The position numbers and the translations under genes are program-made. A stretch of 24,000 nucleotides of DNA from positions 16,937 through 40,936 of the forward strand of contig JANXDW010000015.1 in assembly GCA_025058515.1 (NCBI GenBank), read 5' to 3'. Of the stretch, positions 2 to 22,255 are shown in pieces. Each line of letters opens with the position of its first letter. Position 1 is the first letter of the stretch. Below the pieces are notes generated by a model. The model was not told the DNA's origin. It saw only the letters and a program-made list of their open reading frames with translations, and ran no database searches. The stretch is from Aigarchaeota archaeon. Its GTDB lineage: Archaea; Thermoproteota; Nitrososphaeria_A; Caldarchaeales; Wolframiiraptoraceae.

Positions 2-1375
2 TACAAACCAGATTCTGGTGAGATATACATAGAGGGGAGGCGTGTAGAGATAAGATCTCCTAAAGAAGCAATAAAACTAGGTATAGGTATGGTTCATCAA
101 AACTTCAAACTCATTCCTCAACATACTGTACTTGAGAATGTAATTCTTGGGTTAAAAGATGTGGGATTCATAATAGATAGTAAGAAGATTGGAGAAGAGA
201 TAAAGAAGTTAGCAGAACAATATAATTGGAAGATAGATCCTCACGTATTTGTCTGGCAGCTCTCAGCTGGAGAGAAGCAGCAGGTTGAGTTGTTAAAGAT
301 TCTATATAGAAAGGCCAAGATACTGATCTTAGATGAACCTACATCTGTTCTAACTCCTCAAGAATGCAAGTATCTATTTTATGCTCTAAGAATGATGGTG
401 AAGGAAGGTAGAGGAGTCATCTTTATTACACATAAGTTAGATGAAGCTCTAGCTATCAGCGATCGAGTAACTGTAATGAGAAGGGGGAAGGTCGTAGCGA
501 CAAAGAATACTTGGGAGACGGATATTAAAGAGCTTGCGAGCTTCATGATCGGTAGACCAGTACTCTTCAATATTGAAAAGAATAAAACATATTCAGATGA
601 AGAATTAGTTATAGTGAGAAACTTGAAAGTTTTCAACGACGCTGGTGTACTCTCATTGAAGAACGTAAACTTAACGATAAGGAAGAATGAGATCTTCGGT
701 ATAATCGGTGTAACTGGGAATGGGCAGCAAGAATTAGCAGAAGTCTTAGCTGGTTTAAGGAGACCAGTAGATGGAGAGATAATAATTGATGGTATAAAGA
801 TTGTTGATCCAAATCCTCAGAAGATGATAGAACTCGGTGTAGCATATATCCCTCCAGAACCTATGAAGTACGGGGTAGCTCCAAACCTCTCCGTAATAGA
901 CAACCTATTTCTAAAAGCTTATAGGTATAGACCATACTCAAAGAAGATATTCATAGATATAAAGAAGATGGAGAAGAAAGCTGAAGAAATTGTAGAAAAG
1001 TTTAACATAGTTTGTCCAAGTCCTTCTATCAAAGTTAGGTCACTATCTGGTGGAAATATACAGAGGTTAATCCTCGCTAGAGAACTCTCAGAATTGATCG
1101 GAGGAGTAAGGTCGAAGCTTATTATTGCAACTTATCCAACTAAAGGTTTAGATATAGCTGCTGCAGAATTCTTAAACAAGAGCTTAATAGAGTATAGTAA
1201 GCTAGGTACAAGTATACTCTATATCACAGAAGATATAGAAGAAGCAATGATGGTTTGCGATAGAATTGGAGTTATTCATGATGGAAAGATCGTTGGAACA
1301 TTTAAGCCAGGTGAAGTAAGTGTAGAAAAGATAGGTTTGATGATGGCTGGAGCAGATGCTTCAATCTCATCTTAG
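2..1375 (+). CDS. ABC transporter ATP-binding protein, tandem-ATPase type (BMP/CUT2 sugar-nucleoside uptake family); 5' end cut by window edge
   Basis: Frame 2 is open from the window edge (YKPDSGEIYIEGRRVEIRSPKEAIKLGIGMVHQNF...), so the ATG at 89 is internal. Domain 1 has Q-loop HQ, signature LSAGEKQQ, Walker B ILILDEP and H-loop ITHK. Domain 2 has P-loop variant GVTGNGQQEL and signature LSGGNIQR. Two cognate permease genes follow. Confidence 0.9.
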   Translation, partial: YKPDSGEIYIEGRRVEIRSPKEAIKLGIGMVHQNFKLIPQHTVLENVILGLKDVGFIIDSKKIGEEIKKLAEQYNWKIDPHVFVWQLSAGEKQQVELLKILYRKAKILILDEPTSVLTPQECKYLFYALRMMVKEGRGVIFITHKLDEALAISDRVTVMRRGKVVATKNTWETDIKELASFMIGRPVLFNIEKNKTYSDEELVIVRNLKVFNDAGVLSLKNVNLTIRKNEIFGIIGVTGNGQQELAEVLAGLRRPVDGEIIIDGIKIVDPNPQKMIELGVAYIPPEPMKYGVAPNLSVIDNLFLKAYRYRPYSKKIFIDIKKMEKKAEEIVEKFNIVCPSPSIKVRSLSGGNIQRLILARELSELIGGVRSKLIIATYPTKGLDIAAAEFLNKSLIEYSKLGTSILYITEDIEEAMMVCDRIGVIHDGKIVGTFKPGEVSVEKIGLMMAGADASISS

Positions 1376-2496
1376 TGGTGGTGAAGTTGATTAAATATCG
1401 CTTGAGACCAAATGTAGTAGTCAAGATAGAGAGAAGACTCCATTATCCTCGTAAACTATCAGTCTTATCAACGATATTAAGCATCTTGATAGCTTTCGGA
1501 GTAGCTGGAGCTGCACTTACTATACTAGGTGCAGATGCATTAATAGCTTATAGCCAGATAATCGCAGTCTTCATTACACCTTCACTACTGATCGAGACTA
1601 TCAAGTACGCTATCCCAATAGGATTTGCAGCATTAGGCTTAAACATAGCCTTCAGAATGAATTTCTGGAATATCGGGGCAGAAGGCCAGATATATCTAGG
1701 AATGTTTGCATCTACAGGCATAGTTCTACTCCATGTATACTATGGAATGTTCCCAGAGTACTTTGTACTCCCAATGATGATCGTAACATCGTTTATAGCT
1801 GGAGGTGCATGGTGTGCCCTCCCTTCTTTTCTTAAAGCAAAGATGAAGGTAAATGAGATACTTACAACATTGATGATGAACTATATAGCTATATACTTTG
1901 TAGATTACTTAATATATGGACCGTGGAGAGATCCAAAAGGGTTTGGATTTCCCTTATCAATACCTTTCCCAGAATATGCTAAACTAACCTTAATCTTTGG
2001 CGAATCCACCTACCTAGGGTCGATCCTCTTCATAGCTATGGCAACACTAGTCTACTGTATCTTAAAGTATACTAAACTTGGGTTTGAGTTAAAGATTGTT
2101 GGAGAAAGCCTAGATACAGCAAGATATGCAGGAACCAACTTAACTAAAGTTATTACTCTTGGAGGTTTCCTATCTGGAGGTTTCGCAGGATTAGGTGGAT
2201 TAACGATAGTGAGCGGTATTATCGGGAGACTTAGACCTAGAGCATCGGCTGGGTATGGCTACACAGCGATAATAGTAACTCTTCTATCAACGCTCAATCC
2301 ATGGTTAATAATACCTACGAGCATCTTCTTCGGAGGATTATTTGTAGCTGGGAACACACTTCAAGTAACATTAAACATACCTGGAGCTACCATAGAGATG
2401 TTACAAGCATTAATATTCTTATTCATATTATTTGGAGAATTGTTCAAGCGTTATAAGATAACTATACTCACGGGAGGTGGTAAACCTGAGCCTTGA
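1375..2496 (+). CDS. ABC transporter permease (BPD_transp_2 / YufP-like, BMP-family importer)
   Basis: 373 aa polytopic membrane protein with the FWNIGAEGQ motif typical of this permease family. The GTG start shares 1 nt with the upstream TAG stop, which suggests translational coupling. Confidence 0.85.
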   Translation: MVVKLIKYRLRPNVVVKIERRLHYPRKLSVLSTILSILIAFGVAGAALTILGADALIAYSQIIAVFITPSLLIETIKYAIPIGFAALGLNIAFRMNFWNIGAEGQIYLGMFASTGIVLLHVYYGMFPEYFVLPMMIVTSFIAGGAWCALPSFLKAKMKVNEILTTLMMNYIAIYFVDYLIYGPWRDPKGFGFPLSIPFPEYAKLTLIFGESTYLGSILFIAMATLVYCILKYTKLGFELKIVGESLDTARYAGTNLTKVITLGGFLSGGFAGLGGLTIVSGIIGRLRPRASAGYGYTAIIVTLLSTLNPWLIIPTSIFFGGLFVAGNTLQVTLNIPGATIEMLQALIFLFILFGELFKRYKITILTGGGKPEP

Positions 2497-3469
2497 ATGG
2501 TTTGAACAAGTATTTCAGCTAACTGTCCAGATGGGTACAATATACCTTATAGCATCTCTTGGAGAAGTCTATGCGGAACGTTCAGGGGTCTTAAATTTAG
2601 GGTTAGAAGGAATGATGATCATGGGTGCAGCAATCTCCTTCATATTCACCATAGCTTACGGTCATCTTGTAGCTATACTCATGGCCGCTCTGATTGGAGT
2701 ATTGATGAGCCTTATTCTCGCAGTCATGGCTATACATCTAAGGTTAAATCAAGTAATAGTAGGTTTGGCTTTAACATTACTTGGACTAGGTTTAAGCGGT
2801 CTCATAACATTTCCAGATATAAGAAGAAGGATACTATCATCTTTAAACCCATCTTTACCTGAGAGTATGTTGATGATACAACAAGCTGAGAAGCTTCCGG
2901 AGATCCCTATACCATTACTCTCTCAAATACCTTTAATTGGAAAAACATTCTTTACACATAATATACTCGTCTATACCTCACTTATACTTGCAATAATTAT
3001 GTGGTTTATACTCTTCAAGACTAGGTATGGACTCATTATTAGATCTGTTGGAGAAAACCCTTCTATGGCTGATTCTCTTGGTGTAAACGTTTTCCTAGTA
3101 AGATATGTAACAGTAGTGATAAGTGGATTGTTTGCAAGTCTTGCTGGAGCTTACTTCTTTATAGGTTTCCACCCATTCTGGAGAGAAGGAGTTACCGCTG
3201 GAAGAGGATTCATATCACTTGCACTCGTTATACTAGCTACATGGAATCCACTAAGAGCTATACTAGGAGCATACCTCTTCGGAGGAGTCGAGACCTTCCA
3301 GTATAGACTTCAACTATTCGGTCTAGGCGCTCAATCTCCTTACTTTTTAGCTATGCTCCCATACATTATAACAATAATAACATTAATCTTGATCTCTATC
3401 GAGAGTATTAGGAAGAGGATAGGAGTACCTGCTTCATTGGGAACACCCTACTCTAGAGAAGAAGCTTAG
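2477..3469 (+). CDS. ABC transporter permease (YufQ-like, second permease of BMP-family importer)
   Basis: 330 aa polytopic membrane protein with AERSGVLNLGLEGMM, the family motif. GTG start embedded in GGGAGGTG; 20-nt overlap with the previous permease gene. Confidence 0.85.
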   Translation: MVNLSLEWFEQVFQLTVQMGTIYLIASLGEVYAERSGVLNLGLEGMMIMGAAISFIFTIAYGHLVAILMAALIGVLMSLILAVMAIHLRLNQVIVGLALTLLGLGLSGLITFPDIRRRILSSLNPSLPESMLMIQQAEKLPEIPIPLLSQIPLIGKTFFTHNILVYTSLILAIIMWFILFKTRYGLIIRSVGENPSMADSLGVNVFLVRYVTVVISGLFASLAGAYFFIGFHPFWREGVTAGRGFISLALVILATWNPLRAILGAYLFGGVETFQYRLQLFGLGAQSPYFLAMLPYIITIITLILISIESIRKRIGVPASLGTPYSREEA

Positions 3470-4025: not shown

Positions 4026-4202
4026 TAATTTTCCCCTATAAGGCTTAACCCTGCATAATCAATTCTTTCATAGCTACATAATTTCTCAATATAATTTAAC
4101 CTCGTATATGATAATACATTGGTTCTTTGACCTTCTCTAGATGGAGAGTGAAATGTCAGAAAAATACTTGTGAACTCAATATTTAGAGTTTATATCTTTG
4201 TG

Positions 4203-5516
4203 ATGCAGTTTAAAAGTCTAGAGAAATTGGATAGATTATATGTTAATCCTTCAGTTATGTGTGGTCGAATAAGAGCTCCACCTAGTAAGAGCTATACTCA
4301 TAGAGCTTATGCCTTATCTCTACTCGTAGATGGAAGAAGTATTATAGAGAGTCCACTTAAGTCGGGGGATACTCAAGCAACTTTAAGAGCATGTAAACAG
4401 TTTGGAGCCATGGTCTTTGAAGAAAATGAGTCCACCACCATCATTGGCAGTAGATTAAATTTACCTGAAGATGTAGTAGATGCAGAAAACTCTGGAACCA
4501 CTCTCAGAATTTTTACAGCTATATCTACTCTCGCTCCACCAGGATACGTAGTATTAACAGGTGATGAAAGCTTAAGGAGAAGACCTATGCAGCCACTTCT
4601 CGATGCTCTTAAACATCTAGGAGTAGAATGTTGGTCAACTAGAGGGAACGGATGTGCGCCAATTATAGTTAAATCAGGAGGTCTCAAAGGTGGAGAAACG
4701 ATCATCAGGGGAGATATATCTTCTCAGTTTATCTCAGCATTATTGATAGCTTCTACAAAAGCTAAAGAAGAAACAAGAATAAAGATTGAAAGCGATATAG
4801 TTTCAAAGAAGTATATTGATGCAACTATAGAAGTTTTAAAAAGATATGGATATACTGTTAGGAGAGATGAATACCAACTATTTATAGTAGAGCCTAACCA
4901 ATCTGGACGCTCAACACATTTCAAGATACCTGGAGATTTTAGCTCTGCCTCTTTTATTCTTGCTGGAGCATACTTAACAAATGGAAAGGTTGAGGTAGAG
5001 AATCTTAGCCTAGAGCTTCCACAAGCAGACTCAGCAATAATCGATATTCTTAAAGATTTTGATAATAAAGTCTACATCAATAGTTCTAAGATAGTTGTTG
5101 AAAGCTCTGGGATAAGTTCAGGTGATAGAGAATACGATCTTAAAGATTCTCCAGACCTTGTCCCAGTAGTTGCGGTAATGGCCTCCAAGTCTATTGGAGA
5201 AACGATTATTAAAGGTGTTAAACATGCAAGATTTAAAGAGAGTGATAGAATTACGTCAACTGCGATAGAATTGAGGAAGCTAGGTGTAGACGTAGAAGTA
5301 TATGAAGATGGTATGAAGATACGTGGTAAAGAAGAGATCGAGGGAGGAGTAGAATTGGATCCACATAATGATCATCGATTATCTATGGCCTTCTCGATAC
5401 TAGCAGCATCTACAAAAAGAGGATGTATAATCAGTGGATTAAGGTGGGCTGAGATCTCTTACCCAAACTTCTTAGAAGACTTAAAGAGATTAAACATCTC
5501 ATTTAGAGAAGTTTAA
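4203..5516 (+). CDS. aroA: 3-phosphoshikimate 1-carboxyvinyltransferase (EPSP synthase)
   Basis: Contains GRIRAPPSKSYTHRA (the G-x-APxSKS motif), ENSGTTLR, RRRPM and DHRLSMAF. The ORF opens at GTG 4170, but ATG 4203 (MQFKSLEK...) gives a family-typical N-terminal length. The start is uncertain between 4170 and 4203. Confidence 0.92.
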   Translation: MQFKSLEKLDRLYVNPSVMCGRIRAPPSKSYTHRAYALSLLVDGRSIIESPLKSGDTQATLRACKQFGAMVFEENESTTIIGSRLNLPEDVVDAENSGTTLRIFTAISTLAPPGYVVLTGDESLRRRPMQPLLDALKHLGVECWSTRGNGCAPIIVKSGGLKGGETIIRGDISSQFISALLIASTKAKEETRIKIESDIVSKKYIDATIEVLKRYGYTVRRDEYQLFIVEPNQSGRSTHFKIPGDFSSASFILAGAYLTNGKVEVENLSLELPQADSAIIDILKDFDNKVYINSSKIVVESSGISSGDREYDLKDSPDLVPVVAVMASKSIGETIIKGVKHARFKESDRITSTAIELRKLGVDVEVYEDGMKIRGKEEIEGGVELDPHNDHRLSMAFSILAASTKRGCIISGLRWAEISYPNFLEDLKRLNISFREV

Positions 5517-5690
5517 AAACTAAGATATTATCGATAGAGTTTAGATGTATCCATCTTAACGTAGAAAGTCGTGATAGCATTTAACCAGTAGATTTAGAAT
5601 AGAACTGGTCAATATTTGGTTAGAAGAATTCAAAAGCATTATAACTAGAAATCTTGATAAATTTGGAAAATATGTTATTAAAGGGTAGGT

Positions 5691-6791
5691 GTGACTGGAA
5701 ACATTTTTGGTAAGAGATTTGTAGTAGTAAGCTTTGGTGAAAGCCATGGTAGATGTATTGGTGCAGTAGTAGATGGATGTCCAGCTGGACTAGAACTCTC
5801 AGAAATAGATATTCAAAGAGAGCTGGATTTAAGGAAGCCTGGAATCTCAGAAGTCTCTACAAAGAGAGTAGAAGAAGATAGAGTAGAGATCTTATCAGGG
5901 GTCTTCAATGGATTTACTACAGGTGCACCGATATGCATGATCGTCTGGAATCGAGATATAGAGAGTAGAGATTATGAAGCATTAAGATATAGACCTAGAC
6001 CAAGTCATGCAGATTATTTTGCATACGTAAAGTATGGAGGATTCAATGATTATAGAGGTGGAGGAAGATTCTCTGGCAGAATAACAGTAAGCTTCGTTAT
6101 GGCGGGAGCAGTAGCCAAGAAGCTTTTAAAGAAGTTGCTTGGCATAGAGATTCTAGCCTACTCATTAGAGATAGGTGGAGAGAGAGCGGAGAACTTCACA
6201 CTTGAAGATGTTAAGAATATAAGGTATGAGAATGATGTAAGAGCACCGACCCATGAATCTGCTAAGAGAATGAAAGAGAAAATTTTAGAGGTTATGTCTA
6301 AAGGAGACAGTGTAGGTGGGATAATTGAATGTATCGCAATAGGATTACCTATAGGGTTGGGTGAACCGGTATTCGATGCTCTTGACTCTGATCTAGCAAA
6401 AGCACTTCTCTCTATACCAGGAGTTAAAGGTGTAGAATTTGGAGCAGGCTTTAAAGCATCTAAGATGCTCGGCTCTCAACATAATGATCCCATGACGATC
6501 CATGATAGAGAGATAGTTATCCAGAAGAATAATGCTGGAGGAGTTGTTGGAGGACTCTCAACTGGAGCACCATTAATCTTTAGAGTTGTAGTTAAACCTC
6601 CATCATCTATAGCCATAAAGCAGAAGACAGTAGATATCATAGAAAAAAGAGAGGTAGAGATCATTGTAACGGGTAGACACGATCCATGTATCGTTCCAAG
6701 AGCAGTACCAGTAGTTGAATCTATAACAGCTATAGTATTAGCTGACCATGCTATAAGAGGAGGGTTTATTCCCACAGTCATAAAAGATTGA
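5691..6791 (+). CDS. aroC: chorismate synthase
   Basis: N-terminal FGKRFVVVSFGESHG, plus RPSHADY and GRHDPCIVPRA, all hallmark chorismate synthase motifs. GTG start preceded by the SD-like AGGGTAGGTG. Confidence 0.93.
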   Translation: MTGNIFGKRFVVVSFGESHGRCIGAVVDGCPAGLELSEIDIQRELDLRKPGISEVSTKRVEEDRVEILSGVFNGFTTGAPICMIVWNRDIESRDYEALRYRPRPSHADYFAYVKYGGFNDYRGGGRFSGRITVSFVMAGAVAKKLLKKLLGIEILAYSLEIGGERAENFTLEDVKNIRYENDVRAPTHESAKRMKEKILEVMSKGDSVGGIIECIAIGLPIGLGEPVFDALDSDLAKALLSIPGVKGVEFGAGFKASKMLGSQHNDPMTIHDREIVIQKNNAGGVVGGLSTGAPLIFRVVVKPPSSIAIKQKTVDIIEKREVEIIVTGRHDPCIVPRAVPVVESITAIVLADHAIRGGFIPTVIKD

Positions 6792-7531: not shown

Positions 7532-7864
7532 TTAACTCTTTTTATCTTTTTTAACTTCATTTGAGATCCATTCGAGATACCTACTGTATCCAGAGATGAT
7601 CGGTAAAGCTATAATCTCAGGTACTTCATAACTATGTACTTCCTTAATCGTATTCTCTATATCAGCATATTTACTGGACTCCGTCTTTATCAAGCAGATC
7701 CATTCCCGAGCTTCCTCCATTTGATCTTTCCACCAATACATAGATTTAATAGGACCTATAATCTGTACACAAGCTGCCAACCTATCTCTAAGAAGTCTTT
7801 TAGCAATCTCTTCTGCTTTAGCTTCAGAATCAATCGTTGTTAAAACTTGAATATACTTGCTCAT
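7532..7864 (-). CDS. cutA: divalent-cation tolerance protein CutA
   Basis: 110 aa with RLAACVQIIGPIKSMYWWKDQ...LIKT...HSYEVPEIIALPI...YLEWI, the canonical CutA1 pattern. Confidence 0.88.
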   Translation of the reverse strand: MSKYIQVLTTIDSEAKAEEIAKRLLRDRLAACVQIIGPIKSMYWWKDQMEEAREWICLIKTESSKYADIENTIKEVHSYEVPEIIALPIISGYSRYLEWISNEVKKDKKS

Positions 7865-8020: not shown

Positions 8021-9133
8021 ATGGATCATCCATCCATCATGAAAAAATATCTACAACTAGCTCTTTTAGTAGTCTTAGTAGTTAGCATCGGGCTAAATCT
8101 CTATCTAGCTACATCTTTGGGAAACGTTAAGACCGAAACCCAATATGTTACGTCTCAGACAACGGTAACAGTTACCACTGAGATCACTTACACCAAGACA
8201 ACTAATGTTAGAGAAACCGTTTATCCATTGAGAATAATAGATTTTATGAATAGAGAAGTTATCATAACTGATAAACCTAGAAGGATAATCTCATGTGCTC
8301 CTAGTAATACTGAGATCTTAGGAAGTTTAGGATTAATAAGCTACATCGTAGGTGTAGACGAGTTCAGCGATTATCCTCTTGAGGTAAAGAAACTTAGAGA
8401 TGAGGGTTCTATAGTAAATATCGGTGGTGTAGTCACTCTTAATGTAGAGAAGATCGTAGAACTTAAGCCTGATATCGTATTCATTAGCGCAAACCTCCAG
8501 GGAAAACTAGTACCCATCTTAGAAGAGAAAGGATTAACTGTAGTAGCTCTAGAAGCTAATAATATTCTCGATGTTTATAGAGGGATTATACTCATTGGAA
8601 AGATTATGAATATTGAAGAAGAGGCATTAAAAGTTGTAAACAATATTAGAGATAAGATAGACTCCATTCAGTTAAAGCTTGCGAATGTTCAATCTAAGAA
8701 GAGCATCATCGGTGTTATATGGCTTGAACCCATATGGGCTAGTGGAAGCAATACCTTCCTCAACGATATCATTAGTTTAGCAGGTGGATACAACTCTCTA
8801 ATAGATTCTAATGGATGGATTATGTCCAGCCCTGAGACTATTGTAGTTAGAAATCCTGAAGTAATCCTCGTTACAGCTATGTCTATTGGGTTAAAGCCTG
8901 ATGAAGTATTGGAAAAGATCAAGAATATCCAAGGAATGAGCTCTGTAGATGCAGTAAAAAATGATAACATCTACTTATTATATGGACAGGCTGAGAACAT
9001 ATTTCTTAGACCTGGACCGAGAATAGGAGAAGCAGTAGAATTATTAGCTAAGATACTTTACCCAGAGGTATTCAAGGTGAAGATTCCAAATGTTATTGGA
9101 GATGATTATAGAGAATACTTATCAGTAGGTTAA
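8021..9133 (+). CDS. ABC transporter substrate-binding protein, Peripla_BP_2 type (iron-chelate/cobalamin, BtuF/FhuD-like), membrane-anchored
   Basis: N-terminal TM anchor (LQLALLVVLVVSIGLNLYL), then a Thr/Val-rich linker (TQYVTSQTTVTVTTEITYTKTT). The body shows RIISCAPSNTEIL, VGVDEFSDYP and LKPDIVF, typical of the family. The start may instead be ATG 8039. A FecCD permease follows. Confidence 0.8.
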   Translation: MDHPSIMKKYLQLALLVVLVVSIGLNLYLATSLGNVKTETQYVTSQTTVTVTTEITYTKTTNVRETVYPLRIIDFMNREVIITDKPRRIISCAPSNTEILGSLGLISYIVGVDEFSDYPLEVKKLRDEGSIVNIGGVVTLNVEKIVELKPDIVFISANLQGKLVPILEEKGLTVVALEANNILDVYRGIILIGKIMNIEEEALKVVNNIRDKIDSIQLKLANVQSKKSIIGVIWLEPIWASGSNTFLNDIISLAGGYNSLIDSNGWIMSSPETIVVRNPEVILVTAMSIGLKPDEVLEKIKNIQGMSSVDAVKNDNIYLLYGQAENIFLRPGPRIGEAVELLAKILYPEVFKVKIPNVIGDDYREYLSVG

Positions 9134-9159
9134 AGTAAATGTGAGCTGAGTGTTCTATA

Positions 9160-10182
9160 ATGAATGATAACTTTTCAATCATATCATTAAAGAAGAAGAA
9201 GCTGATCCTAGTACTGATCTCTGGAATATCTTTAACCATATTTTTCAGTTTAACCTCATTATTTATTGGTGCAGTAAAATTAGATTTAATCAACTTATTA
9301 TTCGGTAAGAGTGATGTAAAAAATCTTGAACTAGTAATGAATGTGAGAGCTCCTAGAATCGTCACTGCAATAATAGTTGGTGCTTCTCTCTCAGTAGCTG
9401 GAGCAGTGATGCAGAATATTTTTAGAAATCCTTTAGTAGACCCCTACATCACAGGTGTTGCTTCTGGAGCTGCATTCACTACTTCTCTCTCAGTACTTCT
9501 CGGAATAACCTTCTTATCCCCTGCATCACTATATGCTCTACCAGTAATGGCTTTTATAGGTGCTATCATTGCTTTAATCTTAACTCTCTTCTTTGCACGG
9601 TTGGCGGGCGGTACATATCTCAGTCTCCTTCTCTCAGGGATTGCGATCAGCTTTCTCTTCTCATCTGCTACAACTATAGTCGTCACTACATCTGCTGGAA
9701 AGACTTACGGAATTATCTTCTGGCTCTTTGGAAGTCTTATTACATCTTCATGGAAGTTTATCTATATTATGGCTCCTATCTCTATAGTCGTTCTATGCTA
9801 TATATTGTTTAATGCTAGAAGAATGAATGTTTTGATGTTGGGGGATGATGAAGCCCGTCAACTAGGTGTAAACGTATCTTCTCTTAGACGGAATTTTGTA
9901 ATATCATTATCTCTCCTTACTTCTATTAGTGTAGCATTTAATGGTATTATTGGCTTCATTGGATTGATCGCACCACATATCTCACGACTACTAGTAGGAG
10001 AAGATCATAGAATATTACTACCTTCAACTATCTTTACAGGAGGGATAATACTTATCTTAGCAGATCTAGCTGCTAGGACTTTCATAGCACCTGCAGAACT
10101 ACCGATAGGAGCTCTAACATCATCGATCGGTGCACCATTCTTTCTATTCCTCTTAATAAAGATGCATAGAAGACATAGATAA
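9160..10182 (+). CDS. FecCD-family ABC permease (iron-chelate/cobalamin, BtuC-like)
   Basis: 340 aa polytopic protein. APRIVTAIIVGASLSVAGAVMQNIFRNPLVDPYITGVASGAA and PIGALTSSIGAPFFLFLL are FecCD signature regions. Confidence 0.88.
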   Translation: MNDNFSIISLKKKKLILVLISGISLTIFFSLTSLFIGAVKLDLINLLFGKSDVKNLELVMNVRAPRIVTAIIVGASLSVAGAVMQNIFRNPLVDPYITGVASGAAFTTSLSVLLGITFLSPASLYALPVMAFIGAIIALILTLFFARLAGGTYLSLLLSGIAISFLFSSATTIVVTTSAGKTYGIIFWLFGSLITSSWKFIYIMAPISIVVLCYILFNARRMNVLMLGDDEARQLGVNVSSLRRNFVISLSLLTSISVAFNGIIGFIGLIAPHISRLLVGEDHRILLPSTIFTGGIILILADLAARTFIAPAELPIGALTSSIGAPFFLFLLIKMHRRHR

Positions 10183-11750: not shown

Positions 11751-11858
11751 GCCCCGGTAGCTCAGCCCGGGAGAGCGCCCGGCTGAAGACTGCTTAAATT
11801 AAGGTGCGGGATCATCGTAGAAACCGGGTTGTCGCAGGTTCAAATCCTGCCCGGGGCA
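11751..11858 (+). tRNA. tRNA-Phe (GAA) with a 34-nt intron at the canonical 37/38 position
   Basis: Hand-folded cloverleaf. Acceptor GCCCCGG/CCGGGGC with discriminator A; D arm GCTC-AGCCCGGGA-GAGC. Anticodon stem CCCGG (11778-11782) pairs with CCGGG (11824-11828); loop is CTGAAG|A with anticodon GAA at 11785-11787. T arm GCAGG-TTCAAAT-CCTGC. Intron is about 11789-11822 and the mature length is 74 nt. No encoded CCA. Confidence 0.9.
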
Positions 11859-13345: not shown

Positions 13346-14827
13346 CTATCTTAAGTTTATGTTTACTTCTTCTCCTTCTCTCAAGATTTCAACCTTTATG
13401 CCTCCTTCTTTCTCTAGAAGCTTTTTGAATTCTCTCGGATTCTCAGTGTGTATTGGGATTACAGTTTTTGGTTTTATCTGTTTAATAATCTCGATCAAGT
13501 CTTCTCTATTAGCATGTCCAGAAGCATGTATCCATCTTCTATCTAATCTCAACAATCTGATCCAATTCTCTACTTTCTCCCACTCTATCTCTTGTTCTTC
13601 ATCATGCGGTTCACTAGTCGATTCGATAATTAGAGACCCTGGAATAGGATTCAGCTCGACTAATTCAGAGATATACTGGAGACCGCTAAATATGAATAAG
13701 TATTCTTCTTGATTTTTACTGATCTCTTCAGCTTTGATAAGAATATCTCTACTTTCTAAATTTTCGTAAAGTTCTTTTAACCATCCTCTATAATATCTCG
13801 ATCCTAAAAAGTATCCATCATGAATTATTGATCTCTTCTCAAAATATACTCTTACATCTTCTAATCTAGGGAGGTTAACTCTGCTCTCAACATCTTTTAA
13901 TGTTTTAATTAGGTGGAAGAGTCTAGGTGATAGAACTGGGACTCTATTACATTCTCTCGCCGCGTCTATCATTGTTTTAAGCCTATCTATATCGAGAGAA
14001 GAGATTACTACTGATATGAGTTTTCCTTTCTTCTTCAAAGATTCTGAGATCGTTTCATTCTTTACCTCTTCCTCAGACTTTATTGTTGAATCCTGTATCC
14101 TCGTACCCTCTATAAGTAAATAGTCTACATTTTCAACCTTCTCAATGAATAATCTCGTATATCTGCTTACAGTTCCATGTAACCTGATGTCACTGGTATA
14201 TGCTATAGATGTTTTATCTACCTCTATATAGAGCCCGAATGTTGCAGGTACAGAATGGTCTATAGGCATAGGTGTAACATCCACTGGAATATCTTTGATC
14301 TTCTTATACTCTTCAAAGATTATAATTGGTCGCTCAACTTCTTCTAGACTCTCCCCAGCTTCTCCTATCTTCTTCAATTCTTCATATCTTCTATCTTTAT
14401 AGATGAAGACTTCTCTATCTATCCCTGTTCTCCCAGATGTTTCGATAGAATGTTCTATCAATGCTTTCATGCTTCTACTTGTAGCTATACTAATCTCTGG
14501 TTTCAAGAAAACTACTGAACCATAGTGATCTAGATGCCCATGAGAGATTATACATCCATCAACATTGATCTCTCTAGAACTTTTTAGAAGCTCTTCATAT
14601 CCAGCGATGTCTTTTCTATAAATCCCACGTATTTCTGGAAGTATACCTATTAGGAGATAATTTCTTAAGATTCTATTGATTCTCTCAAGACCATGACCTA
14701 CATCGTACTCTCTCTTCTTCTTTAGGTTCAATCCGAAATCGATGAATATTGAACCATCTCTTCCAGAGATTAATATCTTGTTGCCCCCGACCTCTTCAAC
14801 TCCACCAAGTAAGCATATAGTAGCCAA
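13346..14827 (-). CDS. rnj: ribonuclease J-like beta-CASP metallo-beta-lactamase RNase (archaeal RNase J)
   Basis: N-terminal ICLLGGVEEVGGNKILI, MBL motif HGHLDHYG, and C-terminal IHASGHANREDLIEIIKQIKPKTVIPIHTE (the RNase J-type H-x-SGHA...P-x-HGE-like motif). There are no KH domains, so it is not aCPSF1. The only available start is TTG at 14827. Confidence 0.75.
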   Translation of the reverse strand: MATICLLGGVEEVGGNKILISGRDGSIFIDFGLNLKKKREYDVGHGLERINRILRNYLLIGILPEIRGIYRKDIAGYEELLKSSREINVDGCIISHGHLDHYGSVVFLKPEISIATSRSMKALIEHSIETSGRTGIDREVFIYKDRRYEELKKIGEAGESLEEVERPIIIFEEYKKIKDIPVDVTPMPIDHSVPATFGLYIEVDKTSIAYTSDIRLHGTVSRYTRLFIEKVENVDYLLIEGTRIQDSTIKSEEEVKNETISESLKKKGKLISVVISSLDIDRLKTMIDAARECNRVPVLSPRLFHLIKTLKDVESRVNLPRLEDVRVYFEKRSIIHDGYFLGSRYYRGWLKELYENLESRDILIKAEEISKNQEEYLFIFSGLQYISELVELNPIPGSLIIESTSEPHDEEQEIEWEKVENWIRLLRLDRRWIHASGHANREDLIEIIKQIKPKTVIPIHTENPREFKKLLEKEGGIKVEILREGEEVNINLR

Positions 14828-14947
14828 ATCTATAAAGAGAGTTCTTCACTAGGTATTTAAGCCTATTAAGGTCTCCCCTTCACTAAAAACCTGTGTCTCC
14901 ATAATATATAGTCTTTAGAGATATATGTTGCCACCTATATTTTAGAT

Positions 14948-16132
14948 GTGGATACGATGGTCTCTATGTTACCTACTGTTAAAGAGTATATGAGGGAAGA
15001 GGTGTATTTTATTGATGGTGAGGATACTCTTAGTAAAGCAGTTGGGATATTTCGAGAGAAAGGTCTACCGATCATAGTCGTCTTAGCTAATTCTAAAAAC
15101 TATTTAGGAATAATAACAGATAGGATAATTTTAAGGTCTACTCTAAACCTTGACGTTATCAAGGCGAAGAACGTTGCATTGAAGATTCCATTATTGAATA
15201 TCGATGATACAGTTGCTAAAGCTGCACGCTTAATGCTTGAGAATACTGTTAAGGGGCTACCCGTATCATCAGAAAATAAGAAGATTATTGGAATTATTAC
15301 TGTAGATGATATTGGTAGAGCAGCTGGTGAGAGACTTTACGCTAAAATGAAGGTAAAAGAAGTTATGACAAGGGATCCTATTACTATAACAGTAGACTCT
15401 ACGATAGGTAAAGCACTAGTCTTGATGAGAGATAATGGTATATCTAGACTTCCAGTAGTTAGAGGCAATAAACTTGTAGGATTGGTTACGATAAGAGATA
15501 TTATAGATAAAGTACTCATGCTTAAGAGTAGAGCTACAAGAGGTGAAGTATCTGGAGAGAAGATTAGAAGCCTAGGATATAAGGTCTCCAATATAATGAC
15601 TAAACATGTTGTTCAATCTTCTCCAGAAGAAGACTTAACTAAGGCTATAAAAAAGATGATAGACCATGATGTCTCATGCTTAGTGATCACTCACTCTAAT
15701 AGAGTAGAAGGGATCTTGACTTGGACTGATATACTAGAGATCGTAGCTTCTTTAGAAGAAAAAGAGAAACCGCCAATAAATATTCAAGTAAGTTATAAGG
15801 TTAAAGATGCATCCCCATCTGAGAAATCTGAGATCATTAAAGTTGCTGAGAGATATATCTCAAAACTAAGTGATGCATTAGGTAATGGGAATCTTCTACT
15901 CCACTTTAAGGAACATAAAGAGAAGCATGGAGAAGAACATCTAATACATTGTAGAGCAAGATTGAGAACAGATAAAGTAGACCTTGTAGGCGTTGGTGAA
16001 GCATGGACTTTAAGTCAAGCAGCTAGAGTAGCTCTAGATAAGATTGAGAGACAGCTACTTACGATAAAAGAATTAGCTGGGAGATACCCGTATACTGAAG
16101 AAGTATTTCGTAGTATTGTTGGAGAACTTTAA
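14948..16132 (+). CDS. four-CBS-domain protein with C-terminal HPF/RaiA (ribosome hibernation factor, S30AE)-like domain
   Basis: Four CBS repeats, each ending in a G(I/L)(I/V)T..D(I)-type motif: LGIITDRIIL, IGIITVDDIG, VGLVTIRDII, EGILTWTDIL. C-terminal aa about 277-375 (nt 15776-16072) read INIQVS...SEKSEIIKVAERYISKLSDAL...LLLHFKEHK...HLIHCRARLRTDKVDLVGVGEA..LSQAARVALDKIERQLLTIKE. That fits the beta-alpha-beta-beta-beta-alpha HPF pattern and its ..AID.L.DKLERQL.K.K ending. The start could be GTG 14948, ATG 14957 or ATG 14966. Confidence 0.6.
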   Translation: MDTMVSMLPTVKEYMREEVYFIDGEDTLSKAVGIFREKGLPIIVVLANSKNYLGIITDRIILRSTLNLDVIKAKNVALKIPLLNIDDTVAKAARLMLENTVKGLPVSSENKKIIGIITVDDIGRAAGERLYAKMKVKEVMTRDPITITVDSTIGKALVLMRDNGISRLPVVRGNKLVGLVTIRDIIDKVLMLKSRATRGEVSGEKIRSLGYKVSNIMTKHVVQSSPEEDLTKAIKKMIDHDVSCLVITHSNRVEGILTWTDILEIVASLEEKEKPPINIQVSYKVKDASPSEKSEIIKVAERYISKLSDALGNGNLLLHFKEHKEKHGEEHLIHCRARLRTDKVDLVGVGEAWTLSQAARVALDKIERQLLTIKELAGRYPYTEEVFRSIVGEL

Positions 16133-16710
16133 AAATTTGGCTCAGCTAAAGCTCTATACAAATTCTTATATGAAGATATAAGCTTCCAGAAGCTGGTGCG
16201 CATCCTAGAGCTAGAATAGATTAAGATTGAGAGTAAGGAGATTATTGAAAATACGTGAACTGAGAATGTTGCGAGTTCATAGTTCATCAAGTAGACCAGT
16301 GGTCCTATATAGTACTCCATCAATATAGGCCATAGTATAGGGTTGTAGGAATGATGTAAGAAATCTATAGATATGTGAGTTAATGCCCCAATACTTGAGA
16401 TCAACCAAATCCTTAACCAGCTTCCACTTACATAATCATTAATCTCAAGAACCTTCTTTAGATATTTAGATCTATAGATGATCATCCCCGTTAAGATGGC
16501 TGCAAATCCATCTACTGTTAATGCTCCAATAATTGAGTGAGCAATACCTCTCGGTATCTCGAAGCCAGCTAAATTCATTAAAGGTATCTCGAGGTCGGGG
16601 ATCATAGCTCCAGTAATCAAGAAGATTCTATCTTTTCTAAGAATCCTTAAGAATGGCCATATGAAAACAATGTGAAGCGGTGTAACAGGCATACATTGAT
16701 TGGTAAGCAT
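16129..16710 (-). CDS. DUF457/YdjM-like membrane-bound metal-dependent hydrolase
   Basis: 193 aa polytopic protein with TPLH near the N-terminus, GAMIPDLE, GIAHSIIGAL and THISIDFLHH, as I recall for DUF457. A TTTAAAT box at about 16716-16724 suggests the real start is ATG 16692 (MPVTPLH...) on a leaderless mRNA. Confidence 0.6.
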   Translation of the reverse strand: MLTNQCMPVTPLHIVFIWPFLRILRKDRIFLITGAMIPDLEIPLMNLAGFEIPRGIAHSIIGALTVDGFAAILTGMIIYRSKYLKKVLEINDYVSGSWLRIWLISSIGALTHISIDFLHHSYNPILWPILMEYYIGPLVYLMNYELATFSVHVFSIISLLSILIYSSSRMRTSFWKLISSYKNLYRALAEPNF

Positions 16711-18925: not shown

Positions 18926-20281
18926 TCAACTTGTTTTCTCTATAACTGTCCACCTAACACCCTTCCCCACATGTTTAGTCTTCTCCCAGAAAACATCTTT
19001 GAAGATCTGTTGATAGAATGCTCTTATCGCTGCTAAAGGCATCATGAAGTTCATGTAGAAGATCATATGAGGTAAATATTTGATTAAGGTTTTAGCTGTA
19101 CCCATCCCTTCAAGTACTGCTCCCTCTATCCACGTATAGTAATAGATTACGTTGAAGGCTAATGGTAGTATAGCCCACCATGGAAATACATTCTCCATAA
19201 GATTGAGCGGGATTACCTTGAAGTATTCTAAGACCCAGTATATTGTTAGAGAGTATGCTAACCAATTGAGTAAGACCATGATAGGTGCAATAAGCATGGA
19301 GATAATAGATAAAGCATTTATCAAGCTTAACCTCTTTATAACAGTCGGCTTGATAAGAACTCTAAAATATTTCTCTAAACTCTGAATCCATCCTCTAAAC
19401 CATCTAGTCCTCTGTTTCAACCAAGCTTTGAATGTTACCGGTGCTTCTTCCCAATGTCTAGCATCTAAGACCACCACCTTCCTACCAGAAAGATAAAATC
19501 TAACAGTTATCTCAGCATCTTCAGCTAAGTTTAATGGATCCCATCTACCAACTTCACTGATCGCATCTTTTCTTATGTAATTTCCTGTTCCACCTAAAGG
19601 TGTGAAGAAGCCTAGTTTAGACCTACCGTTAAGCATAACCCTAAACCATCCTGCATACTCCATAGAGAATATTCTTGTTATCCAGCTGTCTGATTCATTG
19701 CTTATCCTAAGGATAGCTTGAACGGAGTCAAGGTTATAGTTCTCAAATGCTGATGCGACTTTGATAAAAGTATCTACATCTGGAATATCTTCTACATCAA
19801 CTATTCCTATTATCTCACCTTTACAGAGTGTAAGTGAATCGTTTAAAGCGCTCGGCTTGGTAGGAAAATATTCTCTTCTAATAAGTGGAACCACTCTTCC
19901 AGGATAAACTTGAGAATACCAAGTCGATATCCTCTCACCTACAGGGTCTTCAGTTACAACTATGAGCTCTTTACGGTCTAGAGGATATTCAACATTATTT
20001 AAGCAAACTTCAATCGTTCTCTGTAGTATCGGTTCATCTCTTGCTGGAATTATAAGAGAGATCTTTGGATAAGTTCTCAGCTTAGTTTCAGGGTTGAATG
20101 GTTTCTTTAATCCAATTATCAGTATAACTAGATGATATATCCCCCAGAGAATGTATATTATAGTTAAACTATACGCTGTGAATATTAGCACTGGCTTAGG
20201 ATAGAGTATTAGTAGTAGGATGACCAGTGAGATGACTGTAAAGAATATTACTTGTTTAAATCTCACCAAGAATTCTCGCAC
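18926..20281 (-). CDS. membrane-embedded family-2 glycosyltransferase of the processive synthase type (cellulose synthase/PgaC/NodC-like)
   Basis: 451 aa. Two N-terminal TM helices, then a GT-A core with IIPARDEP, the DxD-like IVDVEDIPD and the catalytic-base context LAEDAE. The Q-x-x-R-W motif is QRTRW (nt 19400-19414, checked codon by codon). Several C-terminal TM helices follow. GTG start at 20281; alternatives are TTG 20269 and GTG 20266. All of these overlap the upstream gene. Confidence 0.8.
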   Translation of the reverse strand: MREFLVRFKQVIFFTVISLVILLLILYPKPVLIFTAYSLTIIYILWGIYHLVILIIGLKKPFNPETKLRTYPKISLIIPARDEPILQRTIEVCLNNVEYPLDRKELIVVTEDPVGERISTWYSQVYPGRVVPLIRREYFPTKPSALNDSLTLCKGEIIGIVDVEDIPDVDTFIKVASAFENYNLDSVQAILRISNESDSWITRIFSMEYAGWFRVMLNGRSKLGFFTPLGGTGNYIRKDAISEVGRWDPLNLAEDAEITVRFYLSGRKVVVLDARHWEEAPVTFKAWLKQRTRWFRGWIQSLEKYFRVLIKPTVIKRLSLINALSIISMLIAPIMVLLNWLAYSLTIYWVLEYFKVIPLNLMENVFPWWAILPLAFNVIYYYTWIEGAVLEGMGTAKTLIKYLPHMIFYMNFMMPLAAIRAFYQQIFKDVFWEKTKHVGKGVRWTVIEKTS

Positions 20282-21227
20282 CGACTATCTTTATAACCTC
20301 ATCTACTACTTTATCTATAGAATTAGATAGATTTTCAACTTTAATTATTTTTACCTTCTCAGGGTTAAATATACTTTCTAACTCTGGTCTAAAGCTTGAT
20401 GGTAATATTATTATCATTACTGAATTAGGGATGTCTACTGCTTCTATACTCATCAAGAGAGGATATCTCTCATCAATAAATTCTTCTGGAGCTATCTCGA
20501 TTATCAATGATGGATCTCCTTTAACGTATACAGGTATAGTATAAGCTACTCCACTCACTCCCTTGAGACTAGCAAATTTTACAACGTCTAACCCAAGTTT
20601 TTCAAGTTCATAAGCGAGAATCTCTACTTGCTCAAATACTTGAGAAAGGCTTTTTGATTTCTCTGACAATCGATATACTGAGCATCTTCTAACTTCTAAT
20701 TGCTGGACTCTATTCTTATGGTTCTTCTCACATTCCACTTCTACTAAAGGAACTTGGAAAACTGTTCTACAATCTCTACATATAAATCCGAATCCAGGTC
20801 TACCGTAGTCTATACCTACTCTCTTCATAACTTTACCACATTTTGGACAATGGTAAACACCTTCACTACTAAGTCTAAATTCTTCTACGCTATCTGTATA
20901 TCCACAGTCATAGTGAATTAAGAGATCCTTCTTTTCAATATTTCGTGAATTACATTCTGGACAAACTAAGAAGATGTGAAGACAAGTGTCTCCACATATT
21001 GGACAAGAGGGAAATGAAACCTCGCCAACGATCTCGATCAAACCTCTATCATAATATATTTTGAGCTTATCTTCTGGAACATCAACTCCGAAGACATCAT
21101 AGACTATCCCTACATCTTGCCTAATTCTAGGTTTAAACTCTACATGCTCATTTCTACGTAAAGCATGATAGACTGATGATAGAAAGTGTGTATCAATTGA
21201 TCTTAATCTCTTAGATTGCTCAGCCAA
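20256..21227 (-). CDS. cytoplasmic double zinc-ribbon protein (4x CxxC; TackOD1-like), function unknown
   Basis: 323 aa with no TM segments. The Cys cluster at aa about 74-153 (nt about 20769-21008) reads CPIC-x10-CPEC-x14-HYDCG-x20-CPKC-x19-CRDC. That gives two C4 ribbons, and the spacing matches my memory of the TackOD1 domain. The N-terminal 70 aa could be a winged helix (..KIYYDRGLIEIVGEV). The C-terminal about 130 aa is an alpha/beta region (GVSGVAYTIPVYV..LIIEI). TTG is the only possible start, because an in-frame stop lies 9 nt upstream. Confidence 0.55.
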   Translation of the reverse strand: MAEQSKRLRSIDTHFLSSVYHALRRNEHVEFKPRIRQDVGIVYDVFGVDVPEDKLKIYYDRGLIEIVGEVSFPSCPICGDTCLHIFLVCPECNSRNIEKKDLLIHYDCGYTDSVEEFRLSSEGVYHCPKCGKVMKRVGIDYGRPGFGFICRDCRTVFQVPLVEVECEKNHKNRVQQLEVRRCSVYRLSEKSKSLSQVFEQVEILAYELEKLGLDVVKFASLKGVSGVAYTIPVYVKGDPSLIIEIAPEEFIDERYPLLMSIEAVDIPNSVMIIILPSSFRPELESIFNPEKVKIIKVENLSNSIDKVVDEVIKIVGARILGEI

Positions 21228-21272: not shown

Positions 21273-21738
21273 CAAGCGGTTGTACCGTTTAAAGTATAAG
21301 AATGCTGCTGGGATTTGAAGTAGTATAGATTGATTATACTAATAATTGCCCTGTAGGTACTAGTAAGGTCGGCGGATTCATAAAGTTCGAAAACTAATTA
21401 TCCTCATATATAAGATGGTCTCAGTTTCAAATACTCAAAGTAGAACAATAATAAGGATTCTTTTAAGAAAAACCCGAATTTACATAAGTTCTTAAAGATA
21501 AGAAGATTCTTAATAATCTTAAGGCTAGTCAAGAGGTATATATTAAGTAGAGATAAATTAACCCGATTTACTTATTATAAATTATAAATCTAAAAATACT
21601 GGGAACCGAAAATTAAGCGATGAGATTATCTAAGCTCTATCAAGTACCCTCTCACTCTCGGTATTATCGTTTAGAGGTGTCCGCTACTATAGTTTTCAGA
21701 AAGGTTTAGATACGATAAAATTACGATGGATTGGATTT

Positions 21739-22134
21739 TCAGATTATAGTTTCTATTCTCTCAAAGATATCTCTTACAGATAGTATCCCCACTATGTTGT
21801 TGTTATTATCTACGACTGGTAGATGTCTGATTTTATGCGTAATCATAATATTCCTCGCTTCATTCACACTTTTATCTTCCGTTATCCTGATGGGATTTAC
21901 TCTCATGTATTCTTTAACAGGTTTAAGAGGATCAACTCCATCTTTAAATAATTTTAAAAAATCTCTCTCAGTTATTATCCCTAAACATTTTCTAGATTCA
22001 TCAACTACTACAGCACTCCCGACGTTTCTCTCCATCATCATCTCTGCTACTTCTTTTAAAGACGAGTTAGGAGAAACTAACAAGATGTTCTTACTCATTA
22101 TGTCCGATACCTTTACAGATGTTAATCCTCCCAT
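21739..22134 (-). CDS. CBS-pair (Bateman domain) protein
   Basis: 131 aa with two CBS repeats: VSDIMSKNILLVSPNSSLKEVAEMMMERNVGSAVVVDESRKCLGIITERDFLK and VKEYMRVNPIRITEDKSVNEARNIMITHKIRHLPVVDNNNNIVGILSVRDIFE. The overlapping plus-strand ORF 21731..22180 is low-complexity antisense. Confidence 0.85.
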   Translation of the reverse strand: MGGLTSVKVSDIMSKNILLVSPNSSLKEVAEMMMERNVGSAVVVDESRKCLGIITERDFLKLFKDGVDPLKPVKEYMRVNPIRITEDKSVNEARNIMITHKIRHLPVVDNNNNIVGILSVRDIFERIETII

Positions 22135-22255
22135 TTTACACTATCTCCTTCTAGCATCATGTATTTTAAGATATATGTAATAAACAGTTTCTAGTTTTTC
22201 AAGTTAGATTATTATGAGAATACTTATATCTTTAAGAAAAGTTTAAGACTTTAGT

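Follow-up and report, generated by a model that had tools for sequence, protein, structure and literature searches.

The question raised by this locus, positions 14948–16132 of a 24-kb stretch of contig JANXDW010000015.1 (the window, 24,000 nucleotides (nt) in full), is whether a single archaeal gene joins four CBS domains to a ribosome-hibernation domain of the HPF/RaiA type, as a first-pass annotation made from the letters had proposed, and to which family its product belongs. We conclude that the gene product is very probably a ribosome hibernation factor of the HibA/AHA family, and that it belongs to an uncultured archaeon of the Caldarchaeales near Candidatus (Ca.) Geocrenenecus. The domain architecture, the full-length homology to a solved HibA, and the conservation of the CBS3 loop and of the CBS3 and CBS4 motifs are established here, and the HPF fold of the C-terminal domain, as seen in predicted structures, is counted with them. 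Ribosome binding, inhibition of translation, protection of 70S ribosomes and binding of adenosine monophosphate (AMP) would be properties of the query protein by analogy with its homologues only.

The strongest evidence comes from a phmmer search against all PDB sequences, in which the query matched chain H of 9SR9, the 392-aa (amino acid) HibA of Pyrococcus abyssi, with an E value of 2.9e-56 and 194 bits. The alignment is collinear, pairing query residues 11–383 (in the numbering of a 394-aa open reading frame (ORF), see below) with residues 6–381 of the chain, and 9SR9 was accompanied by seven sister entries. Because an E value of this size was obtained with a solved HibA across the full length, chance is ruled out, and the proposed fusion of four CBS domains with a hibernation domain is borne out by a full-length homologue. 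CBS-only proteins in the same search reached at most 73 bits, and Sri chains at most 70 bits. Another homologue with a solved structure, 9l96_a (406 aa, E 6e-32; entries 9l96, 9l98, 9l9c and 9l9v), is labelled "CBS domain-containing protein" and has a haloarchaeal-like C-terminal domain. In all, 185 homologues were found at E ≤ 1e-10; the best 120 of these 185 are mostly about 380–400 aa long, with a few partial or longer calls (268 to 528 aa), and Thermococcus and haloarchaeal proteins are among the matches listed. Some homologues carry the JGI label [quoted passage not shown].

The family has been described under two names. HibA was reported by Madru et al. (Nat Commun 2026, PMC13324472) for P. 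abyssi (PAB0961/Q9UYR4, PDB 9SR9–9SRF) and Thermococcus barophilus (F0LKU5), and was seen on 70S ribosomes of stressed P. abyssi. According to the same study, its C-terminal HPF/RaiA-like domain (270–392) lies in the 30S subunit's mRNA/tRNA channel, and its four-CBS module (1–269) takes three positions on the 50S subunit, one of which puts loop 190–207 into the peptidyl-transferase centre (PTC). Recombinant HibA inhibits in vitro translation, for which the C-terminal domain is required, and when hibA is deleted in T. barophilus, the 70S pool of the stationary phase falls by about 60% and the lag before regrowth becomes twice as long (PMC13324472). HibA was found in 47% of archaeal genomes, in a genome set that takes in Caldarchaeales, including the genus JGI-0000106-J15 (PMC13324472). 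AHA was described by Souza et al. (bioRxiv 2026, PMC12934967) for Haloferax volcanii (HVO_2384/D4GWN2), with homologues in 2,723 species of 17 phyla. The remark in the first-pass annotation that archaeal hibernation factors with CBS domains had been described from cryo-electron microscopy was correct, and the protein is a typical orthologue of an already published family, whose architecture, structures, phenotype and distribution became known in 2025–2026 as HibA/AHA.

The gene lies in a single uninterrupted ORF on the plus strand (14948–16132), which the ORF list counts as 394 aa from a GTG at 14948. This GTG was rejected as the start codon in favour of the ATG at 14957, 9 nt inside the coordinates reported earlier, which is probably the true start of hibA because the N-termini of its nearest orthologues and of P0001, the 391-aa database call for this very sequence, fall there. 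The ORF list, the orthologue N-termini and the phmmer match to 9sr9_H thus define a hibA/AHA-family gene at 14957–16132 (plus strand), with 391 aa and a stop codon. The choice of start rests on the protein alignment; the MAFFT alignment of the DNA, with its unequally trimmed ends, displaced the ATG by 9 nt. Residue numbers refer to the 391-aa protein unless the numbering of the 394-aa ORF is stated. The product is basic, with an isoelectric point of 9.2. Antisense ORFs within hibA (15337–15591, minus strand, with homologous shadow ORFs at other loci) were set aside as by-products of the conserved coding frame.

In overall construction the query closely resembles HibA: it has 391 residues against 392, a CBS module at about 1–269 and an HPF/RaiA-like domain at about 270–392, is collinear with it across 373 residues, and shares the length of the PTC loop in CBS3 and the CBS3 and CBS4 motifs. 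The two differ in origin, the query coming from Caldarchaeales (GTDB Thermoproteota) and HibA from Thermococcales, and are about 35% identical.

Four CBS stretches, which make up two Bateman modules, were recognised by Pfam (PF00571, E 1e-48), just as the first-pass annotation had read them, and the N-terminal module forms four beta-alpha-beta-beta-alpha units in the AlphaFold2 model. Pfam, the secondary structure of this model and a motif census over 60 aligned homologues place all four on the plus strand: CBS1 at 14975–15136 (aa 7–60), CBS2, the second half of the first Bateman module, at 15158–15337 (aa 68–127), CBS3 at 15347–15517 (aa 131–187) and CBS4 at 15581–15748 (aa 209–264). In the census, the CBS1 motif (Ghh[T]xx) has a residue other than Asp at position 7, which makes its ribose site degenerate, and the ribose motif of CBS2 is variable across the family. 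The picture is different for the G-h-h-T-x-x-D motifs of CBS3 (G175/T178/D181) and CBS4 (G252/T255/D258), in which Gly and Asp are kept in 60/60 homologues each; position 178 is Thr in 57 and Ser in 3, and position 255 is Thr in 56 and Ser in 4. The published placing of one or more nucleotide sites at the CBS3/CBS4 interface agrees with this conservation, and the site in the query protein is a putative one.

These motifs bear on the suggestion, made in the first-pass annotation, that the protein is gated by energy charge. In a direct gate, the ratio of AMP to adenosine triphosphate (ATP) at the CBS tetrad would set ribosome occupancy, the protein being bound at low energy charge and released by ATP. 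Retention of the CBS3 and CBS4 ribose-binding motifs across the family, with Gly and Asp invariant, is in line with this, as are the dissociation constants of HibA (12 µM for AMP, compared with 65 µM for adenosine diphosphate and 113 µM for ATP; PMC13324472) and the two AMP molecules that AHA holds at its CBS3/CBS4 junction on the ribosome (PMC12934967). ATP is also reported to trigger release in the related ARC system, which is devoid of HPF. However, when HibA:70S complexes were reconstituted with 5 mM AMP or ATP, the conformational classes were largely unchanged and no clear effect on ribosome binding was seen, and the authors propose instead regulation via a sequestering partner (PMC13324472). 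We consider a direct gate possible, but clearly the less probable outcome. Gating by energy charge is plausible, and reasonable given AMP binding by HibA and AHA, although it goes beyond the evidence.

Between CBS3 and CBS4 lies an extended CBS3 loop (15518–15580, plus strand, aa 188–208, ..LKSRATRGEVSGEKIRSLGYK), which was delimited by a gap-free alignment with Thermococcales HibA orthologues. It equals their loop in length and keeps the core RAT.GE..GEK, the consensus in the family being PRxRATxGExxGEKxRxLS. Judged by this alignment, the loop corresponds to the HibA "PTC loop" (P. abyssi 190–207) and to the AHA "loop 3", both of which insert into the peptidyl-transferase centre (PMC13324472, PMC12934967). 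The loop is the lowest-confidence part of the AlphaFold2 model, with a low predicted local distance difference test score (pLDDT) and a flexible course, as expected of a loop that would become ordered only on the ribosome.

With the full-length model as a query, Foldseek returned CBS-tetrad proteins only; the CBS module dominates the search. In structure, SriA bound to the ribosome of M. acetivorans comes closest to this module (E 2.7e-22), ahead of MJ1225, SSO3205, SriD, Dri and AMPK-gamma. SriA as the top match is in keeping with where the CBS module of HibA has been placed in print, and with the published view that the HibA/AHA module derives from a SriA-like (CM-5) ancestor. The structure set dated to 2026-04-08 and was older than the HibA entries; the C-terminal domain was hence modelled and searched separately.

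For this domain, the match to PF02482 that the first-pass annotation had proposed to look for is present and weak (E 0.0029, 18.7 bits, residues 300–375 in the numbering of the 394-aa ORF), with a score under the gathering threshold; on the isolated domain it reaches 19.3 bits. Among 27 family C-terminal domains, 10 match PF02482 at E ≤ 0.01, with 1.2e-5 as the best value. A profile built from these 27 sequences matches HibA's C-terminal domain (9sr9_H) at E 1.1e-37. The Pfam alignment spreads 76 residues over 68 profile positions, which suggests extra residues in the query domain relative to the profile; the HPF domain of HibA is reported to carry two archaeal-specific insertions relative to bacterial HPF/RaiA (PMC13324472). 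A proof of HPF homology from sequence only was dropped in view of the sub-threshold Pfam score and the poor score of E. coli HPF against the family profile. Because the sequence similarity was unconvincing by itself, structure prediction and Foldseek were used.

The whole-protein AlphaFold2 model, built with 60 homologues, has a pLDDT of 84, and a separate model of residues 269–391, which served as the Foldseek query against the PDB, has a pLDDT of 86.9 and a predicted template modelling score of 0.77. The AlphaFold2 models, Foldseek and the family profile delimit an HPF-like C-terminal domain of about 105 aa at 15770–16084 (plus strand, aa 272–376). The region had earlier been put at nt 15776–16072, so that its presence holds and its borders move outwards in the model. 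The predicted order of elements is a strand (275–281), a helix (287–308), three strands (311–324, 327–338 and 342–349) and a last helix (352–376), the latter being the helix (AARVALDKIERQLLTIKE) to which the first-pass annotation had pointed. A C-terminal tail follows (16085–16129, plus strand), with a short extra helix at aa 380–390 in a low-confidence part of the model.

In the Foldseek search, ranks 1–30 were occupied throughout by hibernation factors (HPF/RaiA/YfiA/pY/RafH/MPY) of bacterial or plastid origin. Chloroplast PSRP1/HPF 6eri_BV (E 5.6e-6) is among them, as are V. cholerae HPF 4hei, with a target-normalised template modelling (TM) score of 0.80 and a root mean square deviation (rmsd) of 2.2 Å, the HPF proteins of M. 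smegmatis, Listeria, A. baumannii and E. coli (6h4n_x), YfiA 4v8i, T. thermophilus protein Y, RafH and MPY. Unrelated folds, such as double-stranded RNA-binding domains (dsRBDs) and PelC, appear only further down the list with poor TM scores. The HPF/RaiA-like nature of the C-terminal domain, which had been set beforehand as the test of the first-pass proposal, is thus supported by the whole of the top 30. By its predicted structure the HPF fold is unambiguous, and in these models the domain is a remote, structural homologue of bacterial HPF, carried mainly by structure and not a Pfam-defined member. From its homologues it is predicted to bind the 30S subunit's mRNA/tRNA channel.

The same searches bear on an alternative in which the protein is a CBS-tetrad regulator that works mainly off the ribosome, for instance as an HhpR-like (CM-3) transcription regulator or as a nucleotide-dependent partner in replication or recombination. 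Partial NCBIfam CBS matches to HhpR and other regulators would point this way, but all of them lie far under the cut-offs and are confined to the CBS repeats. Thermococcales HibA (PAB0961/TK1186) has also been pulled down with replication and recombination proteins; against this stand the full-length HibA match of 194 bits, when no CBS-only protein exceeds 73 bits, and the retention of a PTC-type loop. On this alternative the C-terminal domain would be a generic alpha/beta module that binds RNA or protein, and a few dsRBD structures low in the Foldseek list could be cited in its favour; these reach TM scores of at most 0.45, whereas the top 30 structures are hibernation factors. We judge such a role very unlikely.

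The HibA/AHA assignment can also be compared with the neighbouring hibernation systems. AHA and HibA are one family with two names, and the query shares with AHA the CBS tetrad and the HPF domain, with loop 3 of AHA in the PTC and AMP at its CBS3/CBS4 junction; among the matches listed, haloarchaeal homologues cover about 95% of the query at 32–34% identity. The haloarchaeal members differ in being acidic-adapted and about 380 aa long, and the linker that opens their HPF domain is shorter. Within this domain, the beta2-beta3 hairpin of the query has a His/Lys-rich motif, LHFKEHKEKHGE.HLIHCR, which is common to other Nitrososphaeria-class and haloarchaeal members, while Thermococcales proteins have IRRF.EKFRGVHLYQAR instead.

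Bacterial and plastid HPF, RaiA (YfiA, pY) and PSRP1 (PF02482) share the fold and topology of the C-terminal domain, with target-normalised TM scores of 0.7–0.8 and rmsd values of 2.2–3.5 Å, and by homology with HibA/AHA the query domain would occupy the same 30S site. They differ in sequence (11–22% identity, Pfam score under the gathering threshold), and the bacterial HPF/RaiA proteins have no CBS tetrad, nor do they extend as far as the large subunit; the long bacterial HPFs bring about ribosome dimerisation through a different C-terminal domain. Dri (Pyrobaculum calidifontis, 9E7F/9E6Q) and SriA-D/ARC-A/P (Methanosarcina, Methanolobus) are, like the query family, CBS-tetrad hibernation factors that block tRNA and mRNA sites. 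Unlike the query, which combines a single CBS tetrad with an HPF-fold domain, they have no HPF domain: in Dri a second CBS tetrad serves the small subunit, and each Sri/ARC protein works as a polypeptide of its own. The N-terminal domain of Dri is moreover rotated on the 50S subunit by about 180 degrees relative to AHA (PMC12934967). AMPK gamma shares the four-CBS disc with adenylate sites (Foldseek E around 1e-17), and differs as a regulatory subunit of a kinase that is no ribosome binder, at about 16% identity.

The window holds one further CBS gene, which encodes a stand-alone 131-aa protein with a single CBS pair (21739–22134, minus strand; PF00571, E 4e-34). It is not a candidate of the Sri/CM type because it has no CBS tetrad. 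A plus-strand ORF that overlaps it (21731–22180) matches no family and is probably spurious.

Going by its homologues, P. abyssi HibA and Hfx. volcanii AHA, the protein would act as a two-handed steric blocker. On the 30S subunit the HPF domain would fill the decoding and mRNA channel, and the N-terminal four-CBS disc would sit on the large subunit in the tRNA/PTC space, with its long CBS3 loop reaching into the peptidyl-transferase centre. One polypeptide would then span both subunits, so that mRNA and tRNAs are excluded, and the covalent link would keep the idle 70S ribosome together, shield its rRNA and guard ribosomes from degradation until regrowth. The CBS3/CBS4 junction would take adenine nucleotides, with AMP preferred, as it is in HibA.

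It should be noted that several observations weigh against the assignment. Identity to P. abyssi HibA is about 35%, and both the protein and its host are known from metagenomes only. The assignment of the HPF domain depends on predicted structure and on homology to HibA: the PF02482 score of 18.7 bits falls short of the 23.7-bit gathering cut-off, and the 27-sequence C-terminal family profile reaches E. coli HPF at E 0.3 only. The genomic neighbourhood lends no independent support, as no translation-related neighbour is kept beyond the genus. Finally, genomes with HibA seldom also carry Dri or stand-alone CBS-module factors (PMC13324472), a pattern at the scale of genomes, of which the window covers 24 kb.

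At 76%, 73%, 72% and 62% identity, genomes of Ca. Geocrenenecus are the closest; Ca. Wolframiiraptor and Benthortus come next at about 50%, and other Caldarchaeales lie at 43–47%. The host is thus a thermophilic, uncultured archaeon of the Caldarchaeales ("Aigarchaeota") near Ca. Geocrenenecus. The hibA gene is monocistronic. It is divergent, across a 129-nt spacer, from a gene for a 493-aa RNase J-family beta-CASP/RMMBL metallo-beta-lactamase ribonuclease (13346–14827, minus strand) and convergent with a DUF4184/YdjM-like membrane-protein gene (16129–16710, minus strand); the stop codons of hibA (16130–16132) and of the latter gene (16129–16131) overlap, and a terminator scan found no terminator-like hairpin between the two. 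Further downstream lies glnA.

The order Fe-ADH, beta-CASP RNase, hibA, DUF4184, glnA is kept in Geocrenenecus-clade loci only: the beta-CASP, DUF4184 and glnA genes occur in 5/5 of these loci, and Fe-ADH in the 4/4 that reach that far. Loci of Wolframiiraptor, Benthortus and other Caldarchaeales do not have this order, and no neighbour family is common across these genera. An operon or functional link was rejected on this basis, the order being conserved within the genus only. A broader scenario would have HibA acting here beside other factors, or gated by adenylate charge, with the pairing of hibA and RNase J in Geocrenenecus perhaps co-regulating ribosome storage and RNA decay. Joint action with other factors comes into consideration because Dri is the described factor in Thermoproteota and HibA is reported to exclude CBS-only factors; we regard the scenario as quite improbable.

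Upstream of hibA, an intergenic alignment with five Geocrenenecus-clade loci revealed a TATA-box-like element (TTTAGAGATATAT) at 14914–14926 (plus strand), 30 nt before ATG 14957. Both the window and the Geocrenenecus loci L001–L003 and L016 have the pattern TTTA[AG][AG]GATATAT 30–33 nt upstream of the start of hibA, whereas L004 is more diverged in this stretch. We take it to be a putative archaeal promoter element, its function being inferred, and its spacing suggests a very short leader. A scan for bacterial-type promoters and terminators gave counts at or under shuffled expectation, bacterial models not being applicable to an archaeon.

Elsewhere in the window, Rfam (RF00005, 56.4 bits) detects an intron-containing tRNA at 11751–11858 (plus strand), 108 nt long against the 71-position model. 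Its anticodon loop, CT-GAA-GA, points to a probable tRNA-Phe(GAA) whose intron lies immediately 3' of the anticodon. ARAGORN did not call any tRNA in the window. A gene for a TackOD1 ("Thaumarchaeal output domain 1") protein (20256–21227, minus strand) overlaps, at its end, the start of a family-2 glycosyltransferase gene (18926–20281, minus strand) by 26 nt, and this arrangement suggests co-transcription of the two. The window also carries the shikimate-pathway genes for EPSP synthase and chorismate synthase, with two ABC transporters on their flanks, one of the branched-chain amino-acid type and one of the FecCD/periplasmic-binding-protein type (regions 4170–6791, 89–3469 and 8021–10182, plus strand), and a CutA1 gene (7532–7864, minus strand).

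Taken together, our results open no new question; the live question that they touch is whether adenylate binding by the CBS module gates hibernation, which concerns the whole family and is better suited to tractable model organisms. The practical gain is one of annotation, as this gene and its relatives, which appear publicly as "CBS domain-containing protein", can be renamed as HibA-family hibernation factors, and the family gains a thermophilic member from the uncultured Caldarchaeales.

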